Part shown: positions 1,230-15,283 of the stretch, piece after piece
How positions within the stretch are numbered: position 1 is the first letter of the stretch
How the letters are laid out: each line of letters starts with the position of its first letter
Assembly: GCA_035289485.1 (NCBI GenBank)
Contig: DATDXA010000043.1
Coordinates: forward strand, 1-46,783
DNA length: 46,783 nt
DNA from: an archaeon
GTDB taxonomy: Archaea; Iainarchaeota; Iainarchaeia; Iainarchaeales; Iainarchaeaceae
Reading direction: 5' to 3'
Notes under the pieces: model-generated
Databases searched by the model: none
What the model was told of the DNA's origin: nothing
Seen by the model: the letters and a program-made list of their open reading frames with translations, nothing else
Position numbers and translations under genes: made by a program

Positions 1230-1271
1230 ACCACAGGAACAATTTTATTCCCAAATCCCGTATAACCTTGC

Positions 1272-3377
1272 ATGGGAAATGAAAGTGCCGCGGCACCTGA
1301 ACCAATTTGGAAGCCGTTTGTTGAAAAGTTCCGGCAGGAGCTTGTGATTGCGGGCTATAGCGAGCGCACAATCAAGATGTATCTTCTTTATGTGGAGGCA
1401 CTGCTCGCATCCGCTAATAAGGACCCGACAAAAATAGAAAGAAGCGATATTGTTTCGTTCCTTGCAAAAAAGAAGGAGAAAGGCTCTGCAAATACAACGC
1501 TTGGCCTTGTTCATGCGGCGCTCACTTTTTTCTTCAAAAACTACCTCAAAATGCCAATAATGGAAGAAATCACAACCCCGAAAAAAGCCAAGCACCTCCC
1601 CGTGGTCCTTACAAAAGATGAGGTGCGCGATCTTCTGAAGGCTACAAAACTTGGAAGAAACAGGCTCATTCTCCAGTTCATTTATTCGTCCGGCGTGCGC
1701 GTAAGTGAAGCCGTGAATATGAAAGCCGATGAAATCAATCTCAAAGAAAGGATGGGCAAAGTAAAATCCGGAAAAGGCGACAAGGACCGCATTATCATCC
1801 TTTCAAAAAACTGGTGCAGGCTTGCAAAAAAATACCTCGACCGCAAGAAAGTGAAAAGCCCCTTTCTCTTTTCAAAGAAAAACGGCAAGCAGCTAACACC
1901 TGACACAGTCCAGAGAATTGTAAGGGATGCGGCGGAGAAGGCAGGGATTCAAAAAGAGGTCACGCCGCACACGCTAAGGCATTGTGTTGAGGCTGGCACA
2001 AGAATTTTTACAGATAACACTATTTTGTCCGCAAAGCAGCTTTACAATAACCCAACCTCAAAAATACAGGGATTTGAATGGGGCACTAATGCACTTGTTA
2101 GCGCCCCTCTTCTTGGAAAAGAAGAGCAGGAGCGAAACGGGCTGCTTGAGATTTGGGCTGATGGGTATTGGATTACCAGTACGCCAGAGCACAGATTCTT
2201 TGTTTCTAGCGCGCACGGGCTTGCAGAAAGCTGCGCAAAAGACCTCAAAGTCGGGGATTATGTGCTTGGTGTAAAAAAAGCCGCCATTGAAAGCAAAGTT
2301 GTTGCGCCGGCTGGATGGTGGAGATTTATTGGTTATATTTTGGGTGATGGGACAGTAAGCCAGAGCCGCCGCGGAGTAATAATCAATGACAAAAACCCAT
2401 ATTTTGCAGAATTTTACCAGCAGTTGGCACAAAAAGAACTTGGCAAAGCGCCTTTTCTCAATCAATGCAAGGGCAGCAACAGTTTCGAACTGGTTTATTA
2501 TTCAAAAGCGTTTGTCGGGCAGCTTAAGGGAATGGGAATGATGGTTAGGGCCCCACAAAAGCGTGTTCCTGAGGAGCTGTTTGGGGCATCCACTGATGAA
2601 ATCTGCGCATTTCTTGCAGGCTACTACGATGCTGATGGAAATGAGGGCGAACCTAAAATGTTTTCCTCCAGCAAGGAACTGCTAAAGGATGTGCAAAGCC
2701 TTTTGCTAAGGCTTGGAATTGATGCCCATTTGTATAAGAGAATAAGGAATGTGAAACTTCCGCAGGGGAAAATAATAAGGCATATAATTTACTATCTTGA
2801 GATAATTCATATGCCGGATCAGTTGCTTTTCCAAAATTTAATTCCCACACAGAAAAAAATCAAGGTAATGCCAGATTTTGTCGGCGAAAAAATACCTGCC
2901 GGCAAAATCATTGCAAAGATGTACCCAAAGATGCTTGCAGTAAGAGGGCTTGTCTATAAATTGCAAACAAAGCACGGGATAAGGCACCTGAAAAGATACG
3001 CCGGCAAAATATTTCCTTCAAGAGAAACACTCCTTGCAATAAGTGAAGAAATTTCAAAAGTGCCGGGTTTTGAAGAGGAGAAAAAAGCGATTGATTCTCT
3101 CACCGACCAAAATTTTAAATGGCTCAGAGTTAAAAAAATCCTTAATGTAGAAGGGGAGAAAAAAGTTTATGATTTTACAGTCGCAGGTACTGAGAATTTC
3201 ATTGCGGATGGATTTGTTGTGCACAATTCCTACGCAACCCACCTCCTCGAAGCCGGCGTGAACATTCGAAACATCCAGGAATTGCTGGGCCATAGCAACC
3301 TAAACACCACCCAGATTTACACCCACGTTTCAACCGAGCAGCTAAAGAAAGTGGAAAGCCCACTGGATAATCTTTGA
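1272..3377 (+). CDS. xerA: XerA-like tyrosine recombinase/integrase interrupted by an intein (about 286-aa extein)
   Basis: [11 protein letters not shown]-terminal domain, SGVRVSEA (catalytic R), [34 protein letters not shown] (catalytic Y). Confidence 0.9.
1983..3227 (+). mobile_element. intein with LAGLIDADG (DOD) homing endonuclease, 415 aa
   Basis: Starts C-VEAGT, ends VYDFTV...[11 protein letters not shown] followed by Ser(+1); internal motifs FIGYILGDG and [10 protein letters not shown]. Confidence 0.95.
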
Positions 3378-7096: not shown

Positions 7097-7153
7097 CGAT
7101 AGGAAATAAGAAAAAAATAGCGGGGAAAGGATTTGAACCTTTGACCTCCGGGT

Positions 7154-7222
7154 CTCTCAAGCATTCGCCCTTTATTTGTTGTATTTTGCCTTTATTCGCT
7201 TATTTAGCCTGATGGCGGCCTT
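7154..7222 (-). other. canonical 37/38 intron of tRNA-iMet (69 nt)
   Basis: BHB: GGG-CTCA-TAA-AG paired with CT-TGAG-AGA-CCC. Confidence 0.9.
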
Positions 7223-7257
7223 TATGAGCCCGGCGGGCACTCCTGGCTGCCCTACCC

Positions 7258-7302
7258 TAATAGATAAACATCACCTAAAATATTGCCGATGATACGTTTA
7301 TT
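7258..7302 (-). other. non-canonical 4/5 acceptor-stem intron of tRNA-iMet (45 nt)
   Basis: Strict BHB: CC-ATAG-CGA-ATAAAC paired with GTTTAT-CTAT-TAG-GG; cutting CG|A and TA|G restores AGCGGGG. Confidence 0.85.
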
Positions 7303-7304
7303 CG

Positions 7305-7889
7305 CTATGGAGGGAGCGGAGAACCGCTGTAAATCCTATTTATCTTACATGAAATGTGCTTATAATGCTTTATATTGGTCAAAATCCGCAATCTCCAGAT
7401 TTCTCTGGGTGTTTTTGCGTTTTTGAAGCTCCACATTTTTCCGATTGGGATGTGCAAAAGCCCGCATATTTCGGCTATTTTAAGCAAAACACCCTTATCC
7501 TGCTGCGTAACCGTAATATCGCCTTTTACCACGTATCCTTCGGCATCAATAAAACCACTCAAAAAGCCCATTAAATAGTCTTGTGATTTTGAAGTTGCCG
7601 TTTCTAATTTTTGGCTTTTGCTTGCCATTTTTCCATAAAATTCCTTGGAATCGACCCTTAGCCGCAAAGAATCAAATCTTTTGTCCTTTCTTTCTCTTCC
7701 TTTTAACCCGGCTTTTTCTAGTATTTCCTGTAATTTAGCCCTTATATCCCCATCCCGGTCAGAGTTGAGGTAAAACTCAACCCTGTAATGCCTGTCATTT
7801 TTGTTATAATGGGAGTAGCCATCTCCTACAAAAAAACCATCTAGATAGCCTTGATTCAAATCAGATAATTCAAAAACTATTCTATTCAC
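7305..7889 (-). CDS. free-standing LAGLIDADG homing endonuclease (two motifs)
   Basis: YLDGFFVGDG and FLSGFIDAEG; no intein splicing motifs; GTG start; TAG overlaps tRNA nt 1-2. Confidence 0.88.
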   Translation of the reverse strand: MNRIVFELSDLNQGYLDGFFVGDGYSHYNKNDRHYRVEFYLNSDRDGDIRAKLQEILEKAGLKGRERKDKRFDSLRLRVDSKEFYGKMASKSQKLETATSKSQDYLMGFLSGFIDAEGYVVKGDITVTQQDKGVLLKIAEICGLLHIPIGKMWSFKNAKTPREIWRLRILTNIKHYKHISCKINRIYSGSPLPP

Positions 7890-7891
7890 CT

Positions 7892-7900
7892 CTACCCCGC
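7892..7900 (-). repeat. copy of spliced tRNA-iMet nt 2-10 (GCGGGGTAG) upstream of the endonuclease ORF
   Basis: Exact 9-nt match spanning the 4/5 junction, about 25 nt downstream of TATA-like TTTTAAGG (7933-7926). Confidence 0.6.
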
Positions 7901-7976
7901 AGCATGTGTAAACTGGTGGCTATAGCCTTAAAATACAATATTCGAAATTATTAGCTATGTCCAATATTTTGTGTTT

Positions 7977-8528
7977 TTAGAGCATTTTCCGGAGCTCTTC
8001 CATCTCTAATTTGAGGTTTTCTATCTTGTTTCCAAGATCTTTAAGCCTTCTCTTATTATCAACAGCCACAAGGGGCTTTCCCGATTCCGGATCCTTAAAG
8101 TTATACTCCGCGGCTATTTCAAAGGGGAATTCAGCCATTCCCTTGCCCGCGCTAAAGAACTCGTGCGTTCCTTCAAATTCCATGCCTTTTTCAAGCTTAG
8201 TTATGTCCTCGGTATGGGTTTCTATCAGTATTTCGGCAATGCGCGAATTCTTTATCTCCCAAGTATAGGAATACCATCCTGTCTTAGTATTTTTGGTTTT
8301 CTGGTAGCATGCAATCCCGCGGTAGTGGAGCCTATTTAGCACAGTCCTTATTTCAGTCACTTTAAGGGGCAGTTTCTTGCCTATTTCCTCATCAGTTACA
8401 GGCCTTTTTTTGTGCTCGCAGATTTTCATGAGTTCAATTGCATATTCCCCGCCCACGGATTTTAGAAAGTCCTGCACTATCTGCAGTTCATAGATTTTCT
8501 TGACGGGGGTTTTTGGCATACTAATCAT
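7977..8528 (-). CDS. tfe: archaeal transcription factor E (TFE alpha)
   Basis: TDEEIG..L.LKVTEIRTVLNRLH..GI...KTGWYSYTW motif. Confidence 0.9.
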   Translation of the reverse strand: MISMPKTPVKKIYELQIVQDFLKSVGGEYAIELMKICEHKKRPVTDEEIGKKLPLKVTEIRTVLNRLHYRGIACYQKTKNTKTGWYSYTWEIKNSRIAEILIETHTEDITKLEKGMEFEGTHEFFSAGKGMAEFPFEIAAEYNFKDPESGKPLVAVDNKRRLKDLGNKIENLKLEMEELRKML

Positions 8529-8554
8529 TTCCTTTGCGCGCTTGTTTTAAAGCC

Positions 8555-9088
8555 CTATTTTGCCTTCCTAATTTTCTTGCCCTTGTTTACAGGCTCAACC
8601 TCGATTTGGGCTTTTGGAAATTTCTTGGAAAGCTCCTTTCCTTCAAAAATCCTGTCTAGGAATACCGCAAGCGCCGCAATTTCAGAATGCGGCTGAAGCG
8701 TCACAGAGACGTTGTATTCAGATTTTTCATAAACTTCGCGCTCCACTTTTTGCGAGCCGATAATTACAAGAAGCTTCTCTTTTTTGCGCAGCTCCTTTTC
8801 AACGTTCTGCAGCGGCAGCCCATACATTGTAAGGTGAACGCTTGTATATCCATTCTTCGAGTAGTGCTCCAGCCTCTTTTTCCAGCTGTCCACAAACTCT
8901 ATTTCAGCTCCCCTGCCCCATCTCTCATTTATGCTCTCAAGCGTTTGGGGTATGCTCTTGTCTTCTTCCCCTTCAATTTCGATTTTGTCGGCGCCAAATG
9001 CCCTTGCAACAAGGCAGCAGTGGCTTGTGACCCGATAATCGCGAACATGCCGGTGCCCATAACGGAGCACGGCTATCTGTGGAGGCAT
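8555..9088 (-). CDS. trm56: tRNA (cytidine-56-2'-O)-methyltransferase aTrm56
   Basis: VLRYGHRHVRDYRVTSHCCLVARAFGA, VHLTMYG, GSQKV, QPHSEIAALAVFLDR. Confidence 0.92.
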   Translation of the reverse strand: MPPQIAVLRYGHRHVRDYRVTSHCCLVARAFGADKIEIEGEEDKSIPQTLESINERWGRGAEIEFVDSWKKRLEHYSKNGYTSVHLTMYGLPLQNVEKELRKKEKLLVIIGSQKVEREVYEKSEYNVSVTLQPHSEIAALAVFLDRIFEGKELSKKFPKAQIEVEPVNKGKKIRKAK

Positions 9089-9146
9089 AACTAGTAGAAA
9101 TCTTGCTTTGCACCATTTTTTATTCCTTGTTCAGCTACTCTACAGT

Positions 9147-10427
9147 ATGCTTGATATCAAATTTGTGCGCGAGAACGCCGATATTATAAAGAAAGATTTG
9201 AAAAAGCGCGGCGACTCTGAAAAAACAAAGTGGCTCTCAGAGCTTTTGGAAATGGATAAAGAGTACCGCTCCGTGCTGCAGGAAGCCGAAGCGCTGAGAA
9301 TGAAGCGCAACCAGATTACTGATGAAATAAATAAACTAATGGCGCAGAAGAAGGATTTCAAGCCGAAGATTGCGGAGGCAAAAAAGCTCCCTGAAAAAAT
9401 AAAAGAGCTCGAGAAAGAATCCGCGCCGCTCAAGGAAAAAATCGATTGGTACTTAATGCGCCTTCCAAATATCCTGCATGATTCCGTTCCTGTAGGAAAG
9501 GACGACTCTGATAATGTGGTTGTTCGAGAATTCGGAAATAAAGTTTCCAATACAAAGCTCGCTCCGCACGGTGAAATCCTTGAAAAGAACGGCTGGGCGG
9601 ATTTCACGCGCGCAACAAAGATTGCAGGTGCCGGGTTCTATTTTCTTAAGGGGCAGTTCGCGCTGCTTGAAATGGCGTTGCTCCGTTTCTCTTTAGATAA
9701 ATTAGTTGAGAAAGGTTACACTCCGATTTCTCCTCCGCTCATGATGAACCGTGCCGCATATGAAGGCGTTACTGACCTGTCTGATTTTGAGAATGTTATG
9801 TACAAAATCGATTCCGAAGACCTCTATTTGGTTGCAACTTCCGAGCACCCGATGGCTGCAATGTATAAGGATGATATTTTCCAGGAAGCGGAGCTTCCAC
9901 TTAAGCTTGCGGGAATTTCCCCCTGCTTTAGGCGCGAAATAGGAAAGCACGGCATAGATACGCGCGGTCTTTTCCGTGTCCACCAGTTCAACAAGGTTGA
10001 GCAGTTCATATACTGCAAACCTGAAGATTCATGGAAAATGCATGAAGAGCTCCTTGCAAACGCAGAAAGCATTTTCAAAGACCTCGGGCTTTCCTACCGC
10101 GTTGTAAATATTTGTACTGGCGATATCGGTACTGTTGCCGCAAAAAAGTATGATTTAGAAGTTTGGATGCCGCGCGAGGAAAAATACCGCGAGGCGGTTT
10201 CATGCAGCAACTGCACCTCATACCAATCAGTGCGCTCCAATATAAAATTCCGCAAAAAGGACGGCTCGAAAGAGTATGTGCACACGCTGAACAGCACAGC
10301 AGTTGCGGCATCAAGGGCGCTGCGCGCAATAGTTGAGACCCATTACGATGGGGAAGTTCTCAAGATTCCAAAGCCGCTGCAGCAGTACCTGAATGGGGCG
10401 AAGGAGATTTCCGCGGAAAAGAAATAA
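9147..10427 (+). CDS. serS: serine--tRNA ligase
   Basis: MLDIKFVREN start, LVATSEHP, CFRREIG...RGLFRVHQFNKVEQF, SCSNCTSYQ, HTLNST. Confidence 0.96.
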   Translation: MLDIKFVRENADIIKKDLKKRGDSEKTKWLSELLEMDKEYRSVLQEAEALRMKRNQITDEINKLMAQKKDFKPKIAEAKKLPEKIKELEKESAPLKEKIDWYLMRLPNILHDSVPVGKDDSDNVVVREFGNKVSNTKLAPHGEILEKNGWADFTRATKIAGAGFYFLKGQFALLEMALLRFSLDKLVEKGYTPISPPLMMNRAAYEGVTDLSDFENVMYKIDSEDLYLVATSEHPMAAMYKDDIFQEAELPLKLAGISPCFRREIGKHGIDTRGLFRVHQFNKVEQFIYCKPEDSWKMHEELLANAESIFKDLGLSYRVVNICTGDIGTVAAKKYDLEVWMPREEKYREAVSCSNCTSYQSVRSNIKFRKKDGSKEYVHTLNSTAVAASRALRAIVETHYDGEVLKIPKPLQQYLNGAKEISAEKK

Positions 10428-10431
10428 TTTA

Positions 10432-10788
10432 CTATTTTATTTCAAAAATTTTAACTTCGTTGCCAGAGTAAGTATACGCATATTTCCTCAACCCCGTTCT
10501 TGTCTTGCTCCACTCAAAAATTCCCCCGTGCAAATTCATGGCATTGTATCCCTGCCGCGCAAGAAAATCCGCTGCGGTCGAACTGCGAGAACCGGTTCTG
10601 CAAAGGCAAATTATCATCTTGTTTTTTGGCAGCTCCGCAAAGCGCCCGGGCAGCTCCGTTAGGTCAATCCATACCATTGGCTCTGCCTTGGTAAAATCCA
10701 CTTCTTCCCTGTGCCGCACATCCAGAAGTACCGCGTCCCCTTTAGAGAGGGCTTTTTCAGCTTCCTGAGAGCTTATCTCCTGCGCCAT
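10432..10788 (-). CDS. rhodanese-like domain protein
   Basis: LLDVR..EE, CRTGSRS active loop, LHGGIFEW; start moved to MAQEIS because the longer ORF overlaps a tRNA. Confidence 0.88.
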   Translation of the reverse strand: MAQEISSQEAEKALSKGDAVLLDVRHREEVDFTKAEPMVWIDLTELPGRFAELPKNKMIICLCRTGSRSSTAADFLARQGYNAMNLHGGIFEWSKTRTGLRKYAYTYSGNEVKIFEIK

Positions 10789-10865
10789 AACCAAGATGCC
10801 TGTTAGTAAGGTTAAAAAACGTGTTTTAGGCGTATTTCTTATTCTTCTAGCTTCTCTTTGTGAAG

Positions 10866-10930
10866 TCAGTTCTATCGAGCCCCCAAAGGGGGCGAAGATG
10901 GAACGCTCCCTTCCAAGGAGCAGCTCGGAG
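10866..10930 (+). repeat. structured dispersed element, copy 1 (abuts tRNA-Lys G1)
   Basis: TCAGTTCTATCGAG...ACGCTCCCTTCC...AGGAGCAGCTCGGAG; the same three blocks occur at 30975-30846 (minus). Confidence 0.8.
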
Positions 10931-11003
10931 GGCCCATAGCTCAGCCTGGTAGAGCAGCGGCCTTTTAAGCCGTGTGTCGAGGGTTCAAATCCCTCTGGGC
11001 TCG
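10930..11003 (+). tRNA. tRNA-Lys(UUU), intronless
   Basis: GGGCCCA/TGGGCTC acceptor stem, GCGGC-CTTTTAA-GCCGT anticodon arm, GGTTCAAATCC T arm. Confidence 0.97.
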
Positions 11004-11147
11004 CCTTTTTCTTTCTCTTAGAAAGAGAAAGAAAAACGCGACCGAAAAAGAAAGAGAAACGAGAAGCGTTCACTGAAAAGAAAAAGTGTGGTGCGAAATG
11101 CGCCTGCAAAGGCATAAATTCGTGAAAGTTTCATATATGGTGTTTTC

Positions 11148-13316
11148 ATGTCTGTTGGAATCGACGAGCTGATGAAGAGCAGGAAGGACAATCTCGAATA
11201 CTTGAGAAAGAAAGGCATTGAGCCGTTTCCATATTCATTTGCGCCCACACACTATTCCGCTGAACTCAAGGATAAATATGAAAGCAAGCTAAAAGCAGGC
11301 GATCACACAAAAGATAAGGCAATAGTCGCAGGCCGCGTGATGGCAAAGAGAAATTTTGGTAAGCTCTATTTTGTTTCCCTTCAAGACCCAAAAGGCAGGA
11401 TTCAGCTTGTTGTTTCAGAAAGTGATGCCGGTTCCGCAGGCGTTGATTTAGTGGACCACTTGGATGTCGGGGATTTTATTGGAGTTGATGGCTTTGTAAT
11501 GAAGACAAAAAAGGGCGAGCTCTCTGTTGGCGCTAAGAAAATAACATTCCTATCAAAAGCCCTAAATCCCTACCCTGAAAAGTTCCACGGCCTAACAGAT
11601 ATTGAAGTTCGTTACAGAAAAAGGCCGCTTGACCTGATAATGAACCCCGAGGTTAAGGAAGTTTTCCTCAAGAGGGCAAAAGTAGTTTCGCTTGTAAGGG
11701 AGTTTCTTGAAAAGAGCAATTTTCTAGAAGTAGAGATTCCTCTTCTCCAGCCAACTTATGGAGGGGCAAATGCAAGGCCATTCATTACAAAATCGCACGC
11801 GTGGAAATCGGATTTTTATCTTTCAATTTCCCCGGAGCTCTACCTGAAGCGGCTGATTATTGGCGGCTATGAGCGCGTATACACTATTTGCAAGAATTTC
11901 CGGAATGAAGATGTTGACAAAACCCACAACCCGGAATTCACGATGATGGAGTGCTACGCAGCGTATTGGGATTACAATGACATGATGAAGCTAACTGAAG
12001 ATTTATTCGCGTTCGTTGCAAAGAGTTTGAACGGCACAACAAAAATAACATACGAGGGCAAGCAGATTGATCTCAAAGCCCCGTGGAAGCGCATGACAAT
12101 GAAGCAGGCGCTCAGAGAATTTGCAAAGCTTGATGTCGACAAATTAACGGATGCCGATTTGAAAAAACTCCTAAAAGAACACGAGCTAGAGGCTGACCCG
12201 TTCAAGCGCGGCCTTGCAATTGCCGAGCTCTTCTCGCATTTATGCGAAGAAAAGCTAATCGCGCCAACTTTCATAATAGACCACCCAAAGGAAACAACTC
12301 CGCTATGCAAGCCAAAGCGCGGCGATCCAACACTCATAGAAAGGTTTGAGCCATTCATCAATGGCTGGGAAGTTGCAAACGCTTACTCTGAACTGAACGA
12401 TCCTGAGTTGCAGGAACAATTTTTCAAAGAGCAGGCAGATCAGGGCAGGGCAAAAGGGGAAACGCACCCGCCTGATGATGATTTCATTGATTCGCTGCGC
12501 TACGGAATGCCGCCAACCGGAGGGCTAGGAATTGGAATAGACCGGCTAGTGATGCTTCTCACGAATCAACCTACAATTAAAGATGTCATTTTCTTTCCAC
12601 AAATGAAGCCAGAGAGAAAGCAGCCATCTGGGACTGCAGATGCACTCAAGCCCGAGCTCGAAGCGATAAAGCCCAACAAGACAAAACTTCTTTTCCAAAA
12701 CGACCCTTACCTAAAAGAATCTTCGGCAACAGTTCGCAGTGTTGAAGGCAATGAAGTCTACCTTGACCAGACAATATTTTTCGCGTTCAGCGGCGGTCAG
12801 AAATCCGATAAAGGCGAAATCAACGGAACAAAACTCAAGGGTGTTTTGCTAAAGGGCGACGACATTGCGCATGTTTTCGATTTCGACCCGAAACTCAAGG
12901 CCGGAGATAAGGTCAGACTCAAACTTGACTGGGACAATCGCTTCAGGACAATGCGCCTGCATTCCGCTTCGCATATTGTCGACCATTTTTTGAACAAGGA
13001 AATTAAAACAGGCGGCACTTCGGGTTCTCTAGTTGACGCTGAAAAGGACAGGAGCACATATCTTGTGAGTGAGAAGATTTCACACGAAGCTTTGAAAAAA
13101 GTTGAAGACGCAACAAATAAATTCATGGCGCAAAAGCACGCAATCAATAGGTTTCCGGACAAGGCAAACCCAAATGTTTTGGTCTGGGAGTGCGAGGGGA
13201 TTGTCCAGCACTGTTCCGGAACGCATGTTCGCAACACTTCTGAAATAGGAAAAATCAAATTAAAGCGCGGGGGCAAGGGCGCCGGAAAAGAACTGGTCGA
13301 AACTTACCTTGTGTAA
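11148..13316 (+). CDS. lysS: class II lysine--tRNA ligase fused to a C-terminal AlaX-like editing domain
   Basis: OB fold, YLSISPELYLKRL, FRNEDVDKTHNPEFTMME, YGMPPTGGLGIGIDRL; then LDQTIFF..SGGQ.SD.G, MRLHSASH, CSGTHV. Confidence 0.95.
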   Translation: MSVGIDELMKSRKDNLEYLRKKGIEPFPYSFAPTHYSAELKDKYESKLKAGDHTKDKAIVAGRVMAKRNFGKLYFVSLQDPKGRIQLVVSESDAGSAGVDLVDHLDVGDFIGVDGFVMKTKKGELSVGAKKITFLSKALNPYPEKFHGLTDIEVRYRKRPLDLIMNPEVKEVFLKRAKVVSLVREFLEKSNFLEVEIPLLQPTYGGANARPFITKSHAWKSDFYLSISPELYLKRLIIGGYERVYTICKNFRNEDVDKTHNPEFTMMECYAAYWDYNDMMKLTEDLFAFVAKSLNGTTKITYEGKQIDLKAPWKRMTMKQALREFAKLDVDKLTDADLKKLLKEHELEADPFKRGLAIAELFSHLCEEKLIAPTFIIDHPKETTPLCKPKRGDPTLIERFEPFINGWEVANAYSELNDPELQEQFFKEQADQGRAKGETHPPDDDFIDSLRYGMPPTGGLGIGIDRLVMLLTNQPTIKDVIFFPQMKPERKQPSGTADALKPELEAIKPNKTKLLFQNDPYLKESSATVRSVEGNEVYLDQTIFFAFSGGQKSDKGEINGTKLKGVLLKGDDIAHVFDFDPKLKAGDKVRLKLDWDNRFRTMRLHSASHIVDHFLNKEIKTGGTSGSLVDAEKDRSTYLVSEKISHEALKKVEDATNKFMAQKHAINRFPDKANPNVLVWECEGIVQHCSGTHVRNTSEIGKIKLKRGGKGAGKELVETYLV

Positions 13317-13330
13317 TCGGGGTTTTTGTG

Positions 13331-13468
13331 ATGCCAGAATGCCTTGCACTAAACCCGTTAGAAGATTATGCTTCGTGTCCCGCCTGCGGCGGTGAGATGC
13401 GCGAGCAGCACGCGAAGTGGGTTTGCACAAAATGCAGCTACAAGCGCGGGTGCTGCGATTTGATGTGA
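13331..13468 (+). CDS. small CPxCG-type zinc-finger protein (45 aa)
   Basis: MPECLALNPLEDYASCPACGGEMREQHAKWVCTKCSYKRGCCDLM; below the ORF-track cutoff. Confidence 0.75.
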   Translation: MPECLALNPLEDYASCPACGGEMREQHAKWVCTKCSYKRGCCDLM

Positions 13469-13474
13469 AGTTCG

Positions 13475-13509
13475 CACCGGCACTGACGTCTCCTTGCAAA
13501 GTTTAATTG
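13475..13509 (+). promoter_or_regulatory. CACCGGCACTGA motif plus TATA-like box upstream of LAGLIDADG gene
   Basis: Motif at 13475-13486, TTTAATTG at 13502; similar arrangement at 14403 and upstream of radA. Confidence 0.55.
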
Positions 13510-13531
13510 ACTCTATTTTTCTTTTTTTAGT

Positions 13532-14182
13532 ATGAAATTGACGCCCGAACTTGCCGAGCTTACTGGAATCTTAATTGGAGACGGTTGTCTTTCAAAGTAT
13601 TTTGCCAATTTCGATAAACGTTGGAGATATGAACTAGCCTTTACAGGGAACAACGACGAATATGATTATTATCGCGATTTTATCCAGCCAGTTTTTAAAA
13701 ATTATTTTAACACAAAAGGAAGGCTTTTCATCCGCAAGGATAATTCAACCAGGTTCCATGTATTGAGTAAGGTTGCTTTTGATTTCTTTGCAGGCATCGG
13801 AATTCCTATTGGCGAAAAAAGTCATTCTGTTTCCATTCCCAGAGAAATAATGTCAACTACTAATTTGCTTGCTCCATGCCTGCGGGGAATTTGGGATACC
13901 GATGGGTCAATTTACCAGCGTTACCCAAAGCAGTACAAAAATCATCCAAAGCACTATTCCCACTTGAAATCAATGCATCTTGCCATGGTGTCAAAATCTG
14001 TTATAGAAGATGTCAAAGAATGCCTAACTAGACTATCTATACAATCTAGTGAAATTACAACAGACGACAGGGGCGCATTCAGGCTCTATATTACCGACCA
14101 ACTAGAAATCGCAAAATATATGGAAAAGGTCGGTTTTAGAAATGTGCATCATTTAAAGCGCATCTTTAGCATGTCGGCGTAA
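13532..14182 (+). CDS. free-standing LAGLIDADG homing endonuclease (two motifs)
   Basis: LAELTGILIGDG and CLRGIWDTDG; ends 38 nt before tRNA-Lys(CUU). Confidence 0.9.
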   Translation: MKLTPELAELTGILIGDGCLSKYFANFDKRWRYELAFTGNNDEYDYYRDFIQPVFKNYFNTKGRLFIRKDNSTRFHVLSKVAFDFFAGIGIPIGEKSHSVSIPREIMSTTNLLAPCLRGIWDTDGSIYQRYPKQYKNHPKHYSHLKSMHLAMVSKSVIEDVKECLTRLSIQSSEITTDDRGAFRLYITDQLEIAKYMEKVGFRNVHHLKRIFSMSA

Positions 14183-14186
14183 GGTA

Positions 14187-14209
14187 TTTAAAGTTCTCCC
14201 GCGGGAGAA
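14187..14209 (+). promoter_or_regulatory. tRNA TATA box followed by a perfect 16-bp palindrome
   Basis: TTTAAAG 14187-14193; TTCTCCCGCGGGAGAA 14194-14209. Confidence 0.6.
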
Positions 14210-14220
14210 TTAGTCATAGC

Positions 14221-14370
14221 GGGCCCATAGCTCAGGCTGGTAGAGCACTTGATTCTTTTAAGTTATTTTGCTTAGGGAAGGTGCGGCTCTTAAGGTTGTT
14301 TACCGGCTTGAAAGCTTAGGTAGTGATCGGACAGACCAAGGTGTCGTGGGTTCAAATCCCACTGGGCTCG
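14221..14370 (+). tRNA. tRNA-Lys(CUU) with introns at 30/31 (14252-14285) and 37/38 (14293-14334)
   Basis: Spliced anticodon arm CTTG|G-CTCTTA|A-CCAAG; BHB1 AGAG-CACT-TGA-TTCTT / GGGAA-GGTG-CGG-CTCT; relaxed BHB2; T-rich tail. Confidence 0.9.
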
Positions 14371-14402
14371 CTTTTTTTCTTGTATGATTTTTGCATACTT
14401 GA

Positions 14403-14436
14403 CACCGGCAGTGAAGTGTCCCCAATTCTTTAAAAA
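14403..14436 (+). promoter_or_regulatory. CACCGGCAGTGA motif plus TATA box upstream of LAGLIDADG gene
   Basis: CACCGGCAGTGAAGTGTCC is 16/19 identical to 13475-13493; TTTAAAAA at 14429. Confidence 0.55.
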
Positions 14437-14457
14437 TAAAAAATCAGTTTCTTTTGC

Positions 14458-15090
14458 ATGTATTCTGATTCTGAATTAGAATTAGTCGGCGCTATTATTG
14501 GTGATGGCCACATACACAAATCCTCAAAATATTATTTCGGGCTGACTGGAAATAAAATAACTGACCGAGAATATTACTCAAAACTTTCTGTTCTGATTGG
14601 AAAAGTTTGGAATAAACATCCGCGGGTATTTGAGAGTGGCAGGGGTCTACGGATAAGAGTTTATTCAAAGAACATTGTAACTAAATTGACAATGGATTTT
14701 GGGCTTGCCTACAATTCAGATAAGTGTTATAGTGTTGAAATTCCTGAATTTCTTTTAGACGATTATTCAAAAGTAAAACATGTAATCCGAGGAATAGCTG
14801 ATACTGATGGCTCTGTATTCGTTTCAGATAAGAAAGGTTCACCCAATTACCCTTCCTTGGAAATCACCACCGTTTGCAGGCCTCTTGCCGATCAATTAAG
14901 GGAAATTCTATTATGTGCGGGTTTTAGGGTAACAAATATCCGGAAGTATTGGTCTAAGCGTTCAACCACGGATTGCTATAAGGTTTGTTTATATGGCAGA
15001 GATAATCTTAGAAAGTGGGTTTCTGAAATAGGCTTCACTAATCCATATAAAGAGCAAATTGCCAAGCAGGCATTGACAGAGCGCTTTTAA
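14458..15090 (+). CDS. free-standing LAGLIDADG homing endonuclease (two motifs)
   Basis: LELVGAIIGDG and VIRGIADTDG; the TAA stop lies within the TATA-like TTTTAAAC of the downstream tRNA. Confidence 0.9.
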   Translation: MYSDSELELVGAIIGDGHIHKSSKYYFGLTGNKITDREYYSKLSVLIGKVWNKHPRVFESGRGLRIRVYSKNIVTKLTMDFGLAYNSDKCYSVEIPEFLLDDYSKVKHVIRGIADTDGSVFVSDKKGSPNYPSLEITTVCRPLADQLREILLCAGFRVTNIRKYWSKRSTTDCYKVCLYGRDNLRKWVSEIGFTNPYKEQIAKQALTERF

Positions 15091-15117
15091 ACCTTATTTC
15101 AATTAGTTCTTCTTAAT

Positions 15118-15283
15118 GGGGCCGTAGCTCAGCCTGGGAGAGCATCCGACGGATACAAGCGTGCCTTAATGGCTTGTTTTGTCCGGGTGAAGCTGAAGAT
15201 AGAGGCAATGGAGTATCATTGTTTAATCTTCCTTGCTCTCAGCAGTGACCGGTATGTCGCGTGTTCAAATCACGCCGGCCCCA
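15118..15283 (+). tRNA. tRNA-Phe(GAA) with introns at 30/31 (15149-15191) and 37/38 (15199-15247)
   Basis: GGGGCCG/CGGCCCC acceptor stem; spliced arm TCCG|G-CTGAAG|A-CCGGT; BHB1 AG-CATC-CGA-CGGATA / TGTCCG-GGTG-AAG-CT. Confidence 0.9.

Follow-up and report, generated by a model that had tools for sequence, protein, structure and literature searches.

Free-standing LAGLIDADG endonuclease genes beside intron-split tRNA genes in DPANN archaea: a candidate case of collaborative homing

Introduction

Why should genes for LAGLIDADG endonucleases stand, three times in one archaeal contig, immediately upstream of tRNA genes that carry introns at unusual positions? The window considered here, that is, the whole 46,783-nucleotide stretch of DNA analyzed, belongs to an Iainarchaeota-type (DPANN) genome and holds three such genes, which we call HEG1, HEG2, and HEG3 (Table 1). 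The original prediction was that each enzyme and the introns of its tRNA form a collaborative homing system.

Three endonuclease-tRNA modules

All three products lie well above the Pfam LAGLIDADG_3 cut-off of 22.5 bits (46 for HEG1, 43 for HEG2, and 45.3 for HEG3), and none matches a Hint/intein family in the Pfam profile search. In the alignment, each of their two motifs retains its acidic residue (the motif ends are ..VGDGY and ..IDAEGY in HEG1, ..IGDGCL and ..WDTDGS in HEG2, and ..IGDGHI and ..ADTDGS in HEG3), which bears out the reading of these frames as two-motif LAGLIDADG genes free of intein motifs. The HEG3 fold is predicted to be intact: its structural model (pLDDT 89.7) resembles I-Tsp061I (2dch; Foldseek TM 0.72/0.74) and I-DmoI (Foldseek TM about 0.6/0.7), and profile matches agree.

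Each gene is co-oriented with, and directly upstream of, its tRNA gene, and the spacings first reported were reproduced. The TAG stop of HEG1 shares 2 nt with the start of the initiator tRNA-Met gene, the HEG2 stop lies 38 nt from tRNA-Lys(CUU), and the end of HEG3 lies 27 nt from tRNA-Phe(GAA). Between the HEG2 stop and the tRNA, about 30 nt 5' of the latter, lies the TATA-box-like element TATTTAAA, which may serve as the promoter of tRNA-Lys(CUU). Contigs from other public runs (n = 2) span HEG2 to tRNA-Lys and tRNA-Lys through HEG3 to tRNA-Phe with 0 differing bases, and the reads showed no allele of this strain that is free of the nuclease gene.

ARAGORN and Rfam miss or mis-model all three intron-bearing tRNAs of the window. 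The genes were read with a custom solver that places BHB introns first and then scores the cloverleaf, the top-ranked solution being taken. For the initiator tRNA-Met there was a single solution, and the BHB of its 4/5 intron has a central helix of 4 bp with outer and inner helices of 2 and 8 bp; for tRNA-Lys(CUU) and tRNA-Phe(GAA), other readings tied or fell within one point, and those adopted were picked by BHB quality, a Lys-type acceptor stem, and homology to the genes of relatives. The top solutions agree with the introns originally proposed, at 4/5, 30/31, and 30/31, each with a further intron at 37/38. ARAGORN calls the third tRNA Ala(tgc), a call that we reject as wrong because the gene has G3-C70. 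The 30/31 intron of tRNA-Phe is similar in sequence to that of G017, the whole gene showing 80% identity. The window also offers an internal contrast in tRNA-Lys(UUU), which is indeed, as claimed, without introns and without a LAGLIDADG neighbor.

Table 1. Endonuclease genes, tRNA genes, and introns of the window
Feature	Position	Strand	Basis
HEG1, free-standing double-motif LAGLIDADG endonuclease gene, 194 aa	7305..7889	-	LAGLIDADG_3 match
Initiator tRNA-Met, anticodon CAU, A1-U72	7118..7306	-	BHB scan, solver
Exons of initiator tRNA-Met	7306-7303, 7257-7223, 7153-7118	-	Solver
BHB intron 4/5 of initiator tRNA-Met, 45 nt	7258..7302	-	BHB scan, solver
Canonical intron 37/38 of initiator tRNA-Met, 69 nt	7154..7222	-	BHB scan, solver
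tRNA-Lys(UUU), intronless	10930..11003	+	
HEG2, free-standing LAGLIDADG endonuclease gene, 216 aa, Lys(CUU)-linked clade	13532..14182	+	Pfam, tree, alignment
TATTTAAA, TATA-box-like element, putative tRNA promoter	14185..14192	+	Read from sequence
tRNA-Lys(CUU)	14221..14370	+	Solver
Exons of tRNA-Lys(CUU)	14221-14251, 14286-14292 (7-nt anticodon micro-exon), 14335-14370	+	Solver
BHB intron 30/31 of tRNA-Lys(CUU), 34 nt	14252..14285	+	BHB scan, solver
Intron 37/38 of tRNA-Lys(CUU), 42 nt	14293..14334	+	Solver
HEG3, free-standing LAGLIDADG endonuclease gene, 210 aa, Phe(GAA)-linked clade	14458..15090	+	Pfam, tree, alignment, fold
tRNA-Phe(GAA), sole Phe tRNA found in the genome	15118..15283	+	Solver
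Exons of tRNA-Phe(GAA)	15118-15148, 15192-15198 (7-nt micro-exon), 15248-15283	+	Solver
BHB intron 30/31 of tRNA-Phe(GAA), 43 nt	15149..15191	+	BHB scan, solver
Intron 37/38 of tRNA-Phe(GAA), 49 nt; relaxed BHB, 3/4 central pairs	15199..15247	+	Solver

Recurrence and distribution

Is the arrangement peculiar to these three loci? Seven of the nine free-standing LAGLIDADG frames in this genome adjoin a tRNA by their 3' end, with P about 1.6e-13 in a simple model with a margin of ±60 nt at the ends of each of 43 tRNA genes. The same is true of 23 of the 30 such frames taken from 20 relatives (15 upstream and co-oriented, 8 convergent). All four tRNAs of this genome that have a non-canonical intron are preceded by a nuclease gene or a remnant, and the other 11 intron-bearing tRNAs have a single 37/38 intron each (that of tRNA-Tyr read from ARAGORN plus inspection by eye). 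The remnant, upstream of tRNA-Gln(CUG), is a decayed C-terminal piece of 39 aa (C29:29341-29457; 54% identity, E 9e-9), and the tRNA beside it is still intron bearing. In a tree of 41 endonuclease cores, the starred, well-supported clades follow the cognate tRNA: Phe (x5, from 4 families), Lys-CUU (x4), Glu-CUC (x3), Gln-CUG (x3), Ala, Arg-CCU, and Asp (x2 each), and Thr-GGU, which forms two separate starred clades. The motif acids are kept in 41 of 44 frames, the other three being truncated, with one motif region missing. The nuclease-tRNA module is recurrent and lineage specific.

The survey of related genomes that the original prediction called for found nuclease gene and intron together at orthologous loci. 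At the locus orthologous to that of HEG1 in G002, TFE is followed by an intronless iMet with no nuclease gene between them; in G003, LysRS is followed, without a nuclease gene, by an intronless Lys-CUU and then by a Phe gene with a 37/38 intron only. Within the family to which the window belongs, 22 genomes are without HEG1, and its one homologue among 195 other genomes of the order (48% identity) is found in another family, in G064, where the ccaTAGcg junction is the same and iMet likewise has introns at 4/5 and 37/38. In an order sample (60 genomes searched, 30 loci returned), the 30/31 intron is found in 3/3 nuclease-linked versus 2/16 unlinked Lys-CUU genes (Fisher p = 0.01) and in 6/6 versus 2/13 Phe-GAA genes (Fisher p = 0.001), significance that is overstated because the genomes are related and not independent.

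Phe genes that have both a linked nuclease and the 30/31 intron span five families of the order, and intronless, nuclease-free Phe genes span seven others. Family f1 holds several states: linked with 30/31, nuclease free with 30/31, and nuclease free with 37/38 only. Positions 1 to 48 of the mature tRNA are identical between G028 (nuclease linked) and G040 (nuclease free and intronless), the introns being the sole difference inside the tRNA. Among 25 solved Phe genes next to Phe-clade nucleases across DPANN MAGs, the predicted pairing with a non-canonical intron holds in 20, with several distinct sites within positions 22 to 31 (30/31, 27-29, and 22/23), and fails in 5, where an intact nuclease gene adjoins an intronless gene (L093, L102, L105, L109, and L113).

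Proposed mechanism

How might such pairs arise and spread? We posit, in what we regard as an evenly balanced judgment, that the three ORFs represent tRNA-gene-specific, free-standing, single-chain LAGLIDADG homing endonuclease lineages that practice trans or collaborative homing with intron immunity. Such lineages are widespread in DPANN archaea, with the 3' end set against one particular tRNA gene, and each would be inherited or transferred together with the characteristic short BHB introns of its tRNA. In this model, the enzyme would cut cognate tRNA alleles that have neither the nuclease gene nor the intron, within conserved DNA that surrounds the site of the non-canonical intron (in iMet the 5' acceptor region, in Phe and Lys the D-stem/anticodon-stem region around positions 22 to 31). 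Repair from the carrier allele would copy the nuclease gene along with the introns, 4 to about 100 nt downstream of it, and the non-canonical intron would protect the carrier by splitting its recognition site. Once fixed, the nuclease gene may decay or go, leaving orphan introns. We find linkage and mobility, which bears out the original prediction in part, and we infer the position of the cut, intron-based immunity, and which way gene conversion runs. The recurrent pairings suggest a testable route for the spread of archaeal tRNA introns.

Alternative explanations

Must the introns confer immunity at all? It is possible, if somewhat doubtful, that they are passengers in a MobE-like trans-homing process, in which the enzyme targets the tRNA locus and cuts away from the intron site, for example, at a junction between tRNA end and flank that insertion of the nuclease gene itself disrupts, so that the introns are co-converted markers. 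The precedent is phage T4 MobE, which mobilizes an intron with no cutting at the intron insertion site (PMC2790892). Consistent with this idea, the nuclease gene always lies at a tRNA end, where a site that spans the junction could be broken up by insertion of the gene itself, and both introns, that at 37/38 included, are jointly absent from nuclease-free iMet and Lys-CUU, as simple co-conversion predicts. Intact nuclease genes next to intronless tRNAs also favor it and speak against the mechanism proposed above: besides the five Phe cases, they adjoin Arg-GCG in this genome and, in relatives, Ala-GGC (L030) and Gly-CCC (L046). That mechanism is further limited by 4 of the 15 upstream modules in relatives, which have an ordinary 37/38 intron only. 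Further support comes from a second arrangement, in which the nuclease gene is convergent at the tRNA 3' end: none of 11 such cases in this genome and the 20 relatives has a non-canonical intron, and the intron therefore cannot be a general immunity device. The passenger idea sits less easily with the flanks of tRNA genes, which are not conserved and would make a junction site a poor target across genera, or with nuclease-linked alleles whose exons vary between genomes while their introns are kept. Moreover, the clustering of several Phe intron positions looks like repeated selection to disrupt one stretch, not like one inherited passenger.

Could the association itself lack a cause? Nuclease genes might settle by any highly conserved gene, with introns independent of them and shared old alleles producing the pattern. 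Genes of the same kind do adjoin dnaK and MetRS in this genome and SOD, archease (x2), NTP transferase, and a PIN gene in relatives, and the kinship of the genomes noted above counts in favor of this explanation. Introns also exist without nuclease genes, at Phe in G010 and G068 and at Lys-CUU in G010 and G028, and no nuclease remnants were detected at these loci, which also tells against the predicted dependence of intron on nuclease gene. We nonetheless consider independence unlikely given the contrast between the four preceded tRNAs and the 11 with a single 37/38 intron, the family-wide split and the several states within f1 at Phe, and an iMet module whose junction recurs unchanged in a distant family, HEG1 being missing from 22 genomes of the family that includes the window.

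Very improbable, finally, is a domesticated protein, no longer mobile, that serves the neighboring tRNA as a maturase-like splicing helper or gene regulator: certain LAGLIDADG proteins of organelles also act in splicing, the solved structure 1p8k of such a protein is among the HEG3 fold matches, the genes associate with intron-bearing tRNAs, and only one EndA homologue was detected, but the catalytic acids are conserved, the distribution is patchy even at orthologous loci, the tRNA-Gln remnant has decayed beside an intron, G010 has intron-bearing tRNAs and a single LAGLIDADG match, in a long frame, and EndA cuts BHB introns with no helper needed.

Comparison with known systems

In the literature, we found no published description of a LAGLIDADG gene paired with an intron-split tRNA gene. 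The closest parallel to the collaborative homing proposed here is that of phages, where a free-standing endonuclease gene adjoins a gene with an ORF-less intron, the two co-occur, and alleles without both exist; as we propose here, the intronless allele is cut and nuclease gene and intron are co-converted. The phage systems, however, use Endo VII-like or HNH enzymes and self-splicing group I introns, whereas here LAGLIDADG genes accompany protein-spliced BHB introns of 17 to 69 nt in tRNA genes of an archaeal chromosome, in many parallel lineages, one per tRNA, and cleavage at the insertion site is what we would expect of them. Phage T4 SegB is likewise a free-standing homing endonuclease, encoded in a tRNA gene cluster, and promotes inheritance of the tRNA region, but it is of the GIY-YIG family and involves no introns. 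I-DmoI and I-Tsp061I share the fold, the double-motif architecture, the archaeal host, and the association with BHB introns; they are encoded within introns of rRNA, whereas the ORFs described here lie outside both intron and RNA gene, the tRNA introns being much too small to hold its coding sequence.

Transposition of introns between tRNA genes of Thermoproteales was reportedly described by Fujishima et al. in 2010. For Caldiarchaeum, a mobile-element model for tRNA introns has been put forward (PMC3293823). As far as the cited excerpts go, these models also concern late-gained non-canonical BHB introns common to several tRNA genes but name no spreading enzyme, whereas here a nuclease lineage accompanies each intron-bearing tRNA. 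Lys-CUU and Phe-GAA are neighbors with similar 5' halves and introns at the same two positions. Randau and Soll, as summarized in PMC4390854, hypothesized that interruptions of tRNA genes persist because they guard against the integration of mobile elements. There, as here, the interruption would shield a conserved DNA target of a mobile element, but the attackers in that hypothesis are viral and plasmid integrases, whereas the candidate attacker here is a homing endonuclease encoded right beside the gene in question, and attacker and shield would spread as one.

Free-standing endonuclease genes beside interrupted tRNA genes

The three open reading frames that the original prediction took for free-standing LAGLIDADG endonuclease genes (HEG1 to HEG3) are real. 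All score above the Pfam LAGLIDADG_3 cut-off (PF14528; 46, 43, and 45.3 bits against 22.5), none matches an intein family, and the acidic residues claimed for both motifs are in place, with every translation keeping an acid at the end of each motif. In our endonuclease alignment (A1), two LAGLIDADG motifs share one polypeptide and D16 and D117 are invariant; among the relatives' frames, 41 of 44 keep both GDG and DTDG, and the other 3 are truncated, with one motif region missing. Profile searches of the PDB match intein endonuclease domains, I-DmoI, and I-Tsp061I. HEG3, the only one of the three to be folded, yields an AlphaFold2 model (pLDDT 89.7, pTM 0.88) for which Foldseek returns 1dq3 (E 1e-10), 2dch (TM 0.72/0.74), and I-DmoI (about 0.62/0.72); as modeled, HEG3 would have the pseudo-dimeric alpha-beta-beta-alpha-beta-beta-alpha fold and superposes on I-Tsp061I, I-DmoI, and intein endonuclease domains. 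By motif and profile, and in the case of HEG3 also by modeled fold, these are predicted single-chain, double-motif LAGLIDADG homing endonucleases. They are not intein associated, being ORFs of 194 to 216 aa with no Hint match, nor are they intron encoded: the BHB (bulge-helix-bulge) boundaries place all six introns of the window downstream of the ORFs. The nearest named relatives of the genome's endonucleases come from archaeon GW2011_AR10 and Candidatus Iainarchaeum andersonii, which places the organism among DPANN archaea of the Iainarchaeota/Diapherotrites type. In viral contigs, the LAGLIDADG relatives are all distant (31% identity or less) and include no member of the Phe or Lys clade.

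The tRNA genes were read with a solver that enumerates BHB introns, removes up to two, and then scores the cloverleaf. Its top-ranked readings bear out the predicted introns: 4/5 (45 nt) and 37/38 (69 nt) in initiator tRNA-Met (A1-U72), 30/31 (34 nt) and 37/38 (42 nt) in tRNA-Lys(CUU), and 30/31 (43 nt) and 37/38 (49 nt) in tRNA-Phe(GAA), where for Lys and Phe rival readings were tied or within one point and the choice rested on BHB quality, an acceptor stem of the Lys type, and homology with the genes of relatives. The spacing also stands, with a 2-nt overlap for HEG1 and gaps of 38 and 27 nt for HEG2 and HEG3. The TATTTAAA box is located in the gap between HEG2 and tRNA-Lys, and the 4-nt first exon of the initiator gene, directly after the HEG1 ORF, forms a BHB whose inner helix is 8 bp long. 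All the introns of the window are ORF-less and 34 to 69 nt long; the non-canonical ones are full BHB motifs (central helix of 4 bp, flanking helices of 2 to 4 bp and 6 to 8 bp) and start 2 to about 70 nt past the nuclease stop codon. Contigs from two other public runs have the identical arrangement with zero differing bases. Among the contigs of four DNA runs, no allele of the same strain lacked the nuclease gene; such joints as occur in them come from intronless tRNAs of other community members and have short sides and a likeness below 95%.

The standard tRNA finders (ARAGORN, Rfam) fail on all three of these genes. Cloverleaf/BHB solving led us to discard their "Phe(aaa)" and "Ala(tgc)" calls in the window, turned a "Phe(gaa)" call into a CAU tRNA with a 37/38 intron, and turned several "Gly/Glu/Ser" calls in relatives into Gln-CUG or Glu-CUC. 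A 10-nt string spanning the initiator first exon and the start of its 4/5 intron is repeated inside the 37/38 intron, which, judging from a BLAST E value of 0.86, may be chance. A single EndA homologue was detected in the genome, despite introns at 4/5, 30/31, and the D-loop.

Locations of the features discussed (G000, the genome of the window, which is the whole of its contig C43; other G, C, and L numbers, genomes of relatives, contigs, and fetched loci)
Feature	Location	Strand	Remark
HEG1, at initiator tRNA-Met	window 7305-7889	-	
HEG2, at tRNA-Lys(CUU)	window 13532-14182	+	
HEG3, at tRNA-Phe(GAA)	window 14458-15090	+	
10-nt string, initiator tRNA-Met	window 7297-7306		
Repeat of the 10-nt string	window 7191-7200		
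Frame with LAGLIDADG matches	window 1266-3377	+	703 aa; Pfam matches at 2325-2843
LysRS	window 11148-13316	+	722 aa
EndA homologue	G000:C20:6508-6768	+	185-aa frame
Gln-clade endonuclease remnant	G000:C29:29341-29457	-	C-terminal, 39 aa
dnaK-linked endonuclease frame	G000:C31:86529-87509	-	3' end adjoins protein gene
MetRS-like-linked endonuclease frame	G000:C21:28384-29493	-	3' end adjoins protein gene
tRNA-Arg(CCG)	G000:C63:7885-8102	-	142-nt intron, 15-bp helix
tRNA-Tyr	G000:C24:4765-4963	+	126-nt intron
tRNA-Pro(CGG)	G000:C50:2322-2490	-	92-nt intron
tRNA with anticodon UAU (Ile)	G000:C36:4669-4743	+	contig end
CAU tRNA called "Phe(gaa)"	G000:C3:45625		
tRNA 3' half, L035	G012:C46, locus positions ~1840-1885		T-arm and acceptor strand
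Permuted-looking tRNA-Lys(CUU), L059	G056:C31, locus positions ~1375-1460		

tRNA adjacency in the genome and its relatives

Does the arrangement extend beyond the window? The genome (1.16 Mb in 64 contigs, about 90% complete) has 15 open frames with Pfam LAGLIDADG_3 matches, namely 6 long ones (703 to 1179 aa) and 9 short, free-standing ones (204 to 426 aa). The long frames are of the intein type and, by reading of their translations, appear to lie in MCM, Cdc6, a recombinase, aCPSF1, an ATPase, and Top6A; the recombinase of the window has the look of a tyrosine recombinase split by a LAGLIDADG intein. Seven of the nine free-standing frames adjoin one of the 43 tRNA genes (P about 1.6e-13 under a simple model), always with the ORF 3' end facing the tRNA: four lie upstream and co-oriented (initiator Met, Lys-CUU, Phe-GAA, and Arg-GCG), and three converge on the tRNA 3' end (Arg-CCU, Ile-GAU, and a CAU tRNA). 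The remaining two have dnaK and a MetRS-like gene as their immediate downstream neighbors, as read by eye from translations. Non-canonical introns occur in four tRNAs of the genome, the three of the window and Gln-CUG on contig C29, which has a D-loop intron and a 37/38 intron; immediately upstream of the latter gene lies a C-terminal remnant of a Gln-clade endonuclease (54% identity, E 9e-9). Each of the other 11 tRNAs with introns has just one, at 37/38 (tRNA-Tyr via ARAGORN and by eye). Some of these canonical introns are long, in tRNA-Arg(CCG), tRNA-Tyr, and tRNA-Pro(CGG). A weak tblastn match upstream of the tRNA-Tyr gene, whose intron is long and canonical, was rejected as lying, on reading, inside an unrelated membrane-protein ORF. 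The anticodon UAU occurs in a tRNA of the genome and also in two loci of relatives (L069 and L072).

For the 20 relatives sampled, we took all 30 frames of at most 416 aa outside this genome among the 150 Pfam matches listed (87 more exist), setting aside frames of at least 535 aa as probable or truncated inteins. Among the matches listed, 23 of the 30 loci have a complete tRNA gene overlapping or within 55 nt of the ORF 3' end, 15 of them upstream co-oriented and 8 convergent; 1 locus has a tRNA 3' fragment only, 1 has a nuclease pseudogene with tRNA-Gln 161 nt downstream, and 5 (L026, L031, L032, L034, and L036) adjoin, with the ORF 3' end, a conserved protein gene (Fe/Mn SOD, archease twice, NTP transferase, and a PIN-domain gene). 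Within the same listed matches, the upstream class divides into 9 tRNAs with a non-canonical intron, 4 with only a 37/38 intron, and 2 with none, and the convergent class into 0, 3, and 5. The nine with a non-canonical intron comprise D-loop introns in Glu-CUC and Gln-CUG and 30/31 introns in Phe-GAA and Lys-type tRNAs. In a maximum-likelihood tree, 41 endonuclease cores fall into strongly supported groups by cognate tRNA, of which the Phe clade spans four families of the order.

Two of the relatives' loci are unusual. At L035, a tRNA 3' half starts right after the endonuclease ORF and the 3-kb contig yielded no 5' half to match it; the possibilities are a split gene, a remnant, or an intron of great length. 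At L059, the ORF is followed by the 3' half of tRNA-Lys(CUU) (positions 39 to 73), 4 nt, and the 5' half (1 to 38), which would make the gene either circularly permuted or rearranged; a two-intron tRNA-Phe comes next.

When all species genomes were scanned with the alignment of Phe/Lys endonucleases, 116 relatives came up, of which 80 were kept, from MAGs labeled Iain-, Woese-, Pace-, Nano-, Micr-, and Aenigmatarchaeota, among others. Our counts cover the first 44 of the 80 kept loci. tRNA-Phe(GAA) adjoins the ORF 3' end, in either orientation, in 25 of the 44, some of which share genomes with the sample of the order described below; at the other 19 the solver failed (as it also did on L059) or gave another anticodon. 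A non-canonical intron is present in 20 of the 25, two calls being uncertain, at 30/31, 27-29, or 22/23, and second introns lie at 37/38, 43/44, 4/5, or the D-loop. The remaining 5 are intronless Phe genes beside an endonuclease with intact motifs, so that uninterrupted tRNAs next to a nuclease gene do occur, though uncommonly. These five depart from the usual GG at positions 30-31, a departure that may or may not be relevant.

Co-occurrence at orthologous loci

The original prediction asked for a survey of related genomes for the joint occurrence of nuclease gene and intron at each tRNA locus, and such joint occurrence held in part. On the supporting side, nuclease-free loci of two genomes of the same genus lack the introns in question: in G002, TFE is followed by an intronless initiator tRNA-Met gene, with no nuclease gene between them, and in G003, LysRS is followed, again with no nuclease gene, by intronless Lys-CUU, Phe-GAA with a 37/38 intron only, and the same surface-protein gene as in the window. 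LysRS synteny was regained in 2 of 6 same-genus genomes (E <= 1e-50). A BLAST search of 60 genomes of the order with the window's Phe gene gave 30 loci and, with G009 and G013 added, Phe-GAA could be scored in 19 genomes. The 30/31 intron is present in 6 of 6 nuclease-linked Phe genes and 2 of 13 unlinked ones (Fisher p = 0.001), and in 3 of 3 linked and 2 of 16 unlinked Lys-CUU genes (p = 0.01), p values that overstate significance because related genomes are not independent; one linked Phe gene, in G056, has the nuclease gene two tRNA pieces upstream and its introns were read by homology alone. No nuclease-linked gene in this sample is intronless (Phe 0 of 6, Lys-CUU 0 of 3), and the other 11 unlinked Phe genes are intronless (10) or have 37/38 only (1, in G003).

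The joint occurrence is limited in two respects: introns occur without a nuclease gene, as in the unlinked Phe genes of G010 and G068, and nuclease genes occur beside intronless tRNAs. At two intron-bearing, nuclease-free loci (L056 and L057), no nuclease remnants were found; introns, it appears from these loci, outlive the nuclease gene with no remnants left behind. Among the 195 other genomes of the order, HEG1 has one homologue (G064, of a different family; 48% identity; none in 22 genomes of the window's own family), and at that locus the ccaTAGcg junction recurs and the initiator tRNA-Met has introns at 4/5 (22 nt) and 37/38 (33 nt). Mobility is thus indicated by the nuclease-free orthologous loci, the patchy HEG1 homologue, and the remnant on C29.

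In the LysRS of the window, the C-terminal ~220 aa have HxxxH and CxxxH motifs, which may resemble those of AlaX or second additional (editing) domains. Its orthologues in G002 and G003 are frames of 880 and 1044 aa, and the match to them breaks in two near residue 500, as if something such as an intein had been inserted.

A proposed mechanism

Established here are tRNA-specific endonuclease lineages whose ORF 3' ends face the tRNA, their tight linkage to characteristic introns, presence and absence at orthologous loci, and one decay remnant. We propose a mechanism in which the enzyme would cut naive alleles within conserved tRNA DNA close to the non-canonical intron site, repair would co-convert the nuclease gene and the introns, and the intron would shield the allele that carries it. 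Does the intron in fact act as a shield? Over mature positions 1 to 48 of Phe, one nuclease-linked allele is identical to a nuclease-free intronless allele, and within a single endonuclease clade (Phe) distinct intron sites cluster in a 9-bp stretch, positions 22 to 31; both observations favor the shield idea. The intronless carriers and the convergent class count against the shield as a general rule. The main rival is MobE-like homing in trans with the introns as passengers (PMC2790892). We regard the passenger reading as possible and rather unlikely. A cassette of the mORF type, with a displaced tRNA end beyond the endonuclease gene, is not supported by the remnant search: no displaced tRNA-end remnant of at least 14 nt was found at 7 loci of this genome, and across the far sides of 46 loci, 35 gave any match at all and 1 reached 26 bits (L092, 18 nt at 94%), versus 1 of 24 controls. 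A nuclease gene inside a long intron is excluded for the window by the BHB scan and the solver.

That the ORF always turns its 3' end to the tRNA may have to do with the strong tRNA promoter: the orientation would avoid read-through from it or interference with it. Beyond the shield mechanism itself, we speculate, with more doubt than conviction, that tRNA-specific LAGLIDADG lineages are the missing engine of tRNA-gene disruption in archaea. They would attack conserved tRNA DNA; BHB introns at odd positions, and perhaps permuted and split genes, would be selected as shields; nuclease and shield would be spread jointly by homing across DPANN and other archaea; and orphan introns would be left after nuclease decay.

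Significance and relation to known systems

At issue is the way in which short introns, ORF-less and spliced by proteins, come into archaeal tRNA genes and spread there, a route of arrival that an Asgard preprint of October 2026 states to be unknown. Several endonuclease lineages, each tied to one tRNA gene and a characteristic non-canonical intron, together with nuclease-free, intron-free alleles at the same loci in relatives, make this a matter that can be taken to the bench, with the enzymes and substrates defined. If the proposal is true, collaborative homing would extend beyond the group I introns of phages to BHB introns in cells, and the lineages would constitute a panel of natural meganucleases with tRNA-gene specificities. 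The original prediction knew of no earlier description, and our search of the full-text literature, subscription-only papers lying outside it, likewise found none of archaeal free-standing LAGLIDADG genes paired with tRNA genes or introns.

The closest comparison is collaborative homing in phages, in which, as here, a free-standing endonuclease gene lies within recombination distance of a neighbor's ORF-less intron. The two differ in host, enzyme family, the tRNA gene as target, and the BHB type of intron. The introns here are short BHB introns rather than self-splicing group I introns, and an EndA homologue is encoded in the genome; accordingly, the system may operate in the manner of collaborative homing without belonging to the phage systems described.
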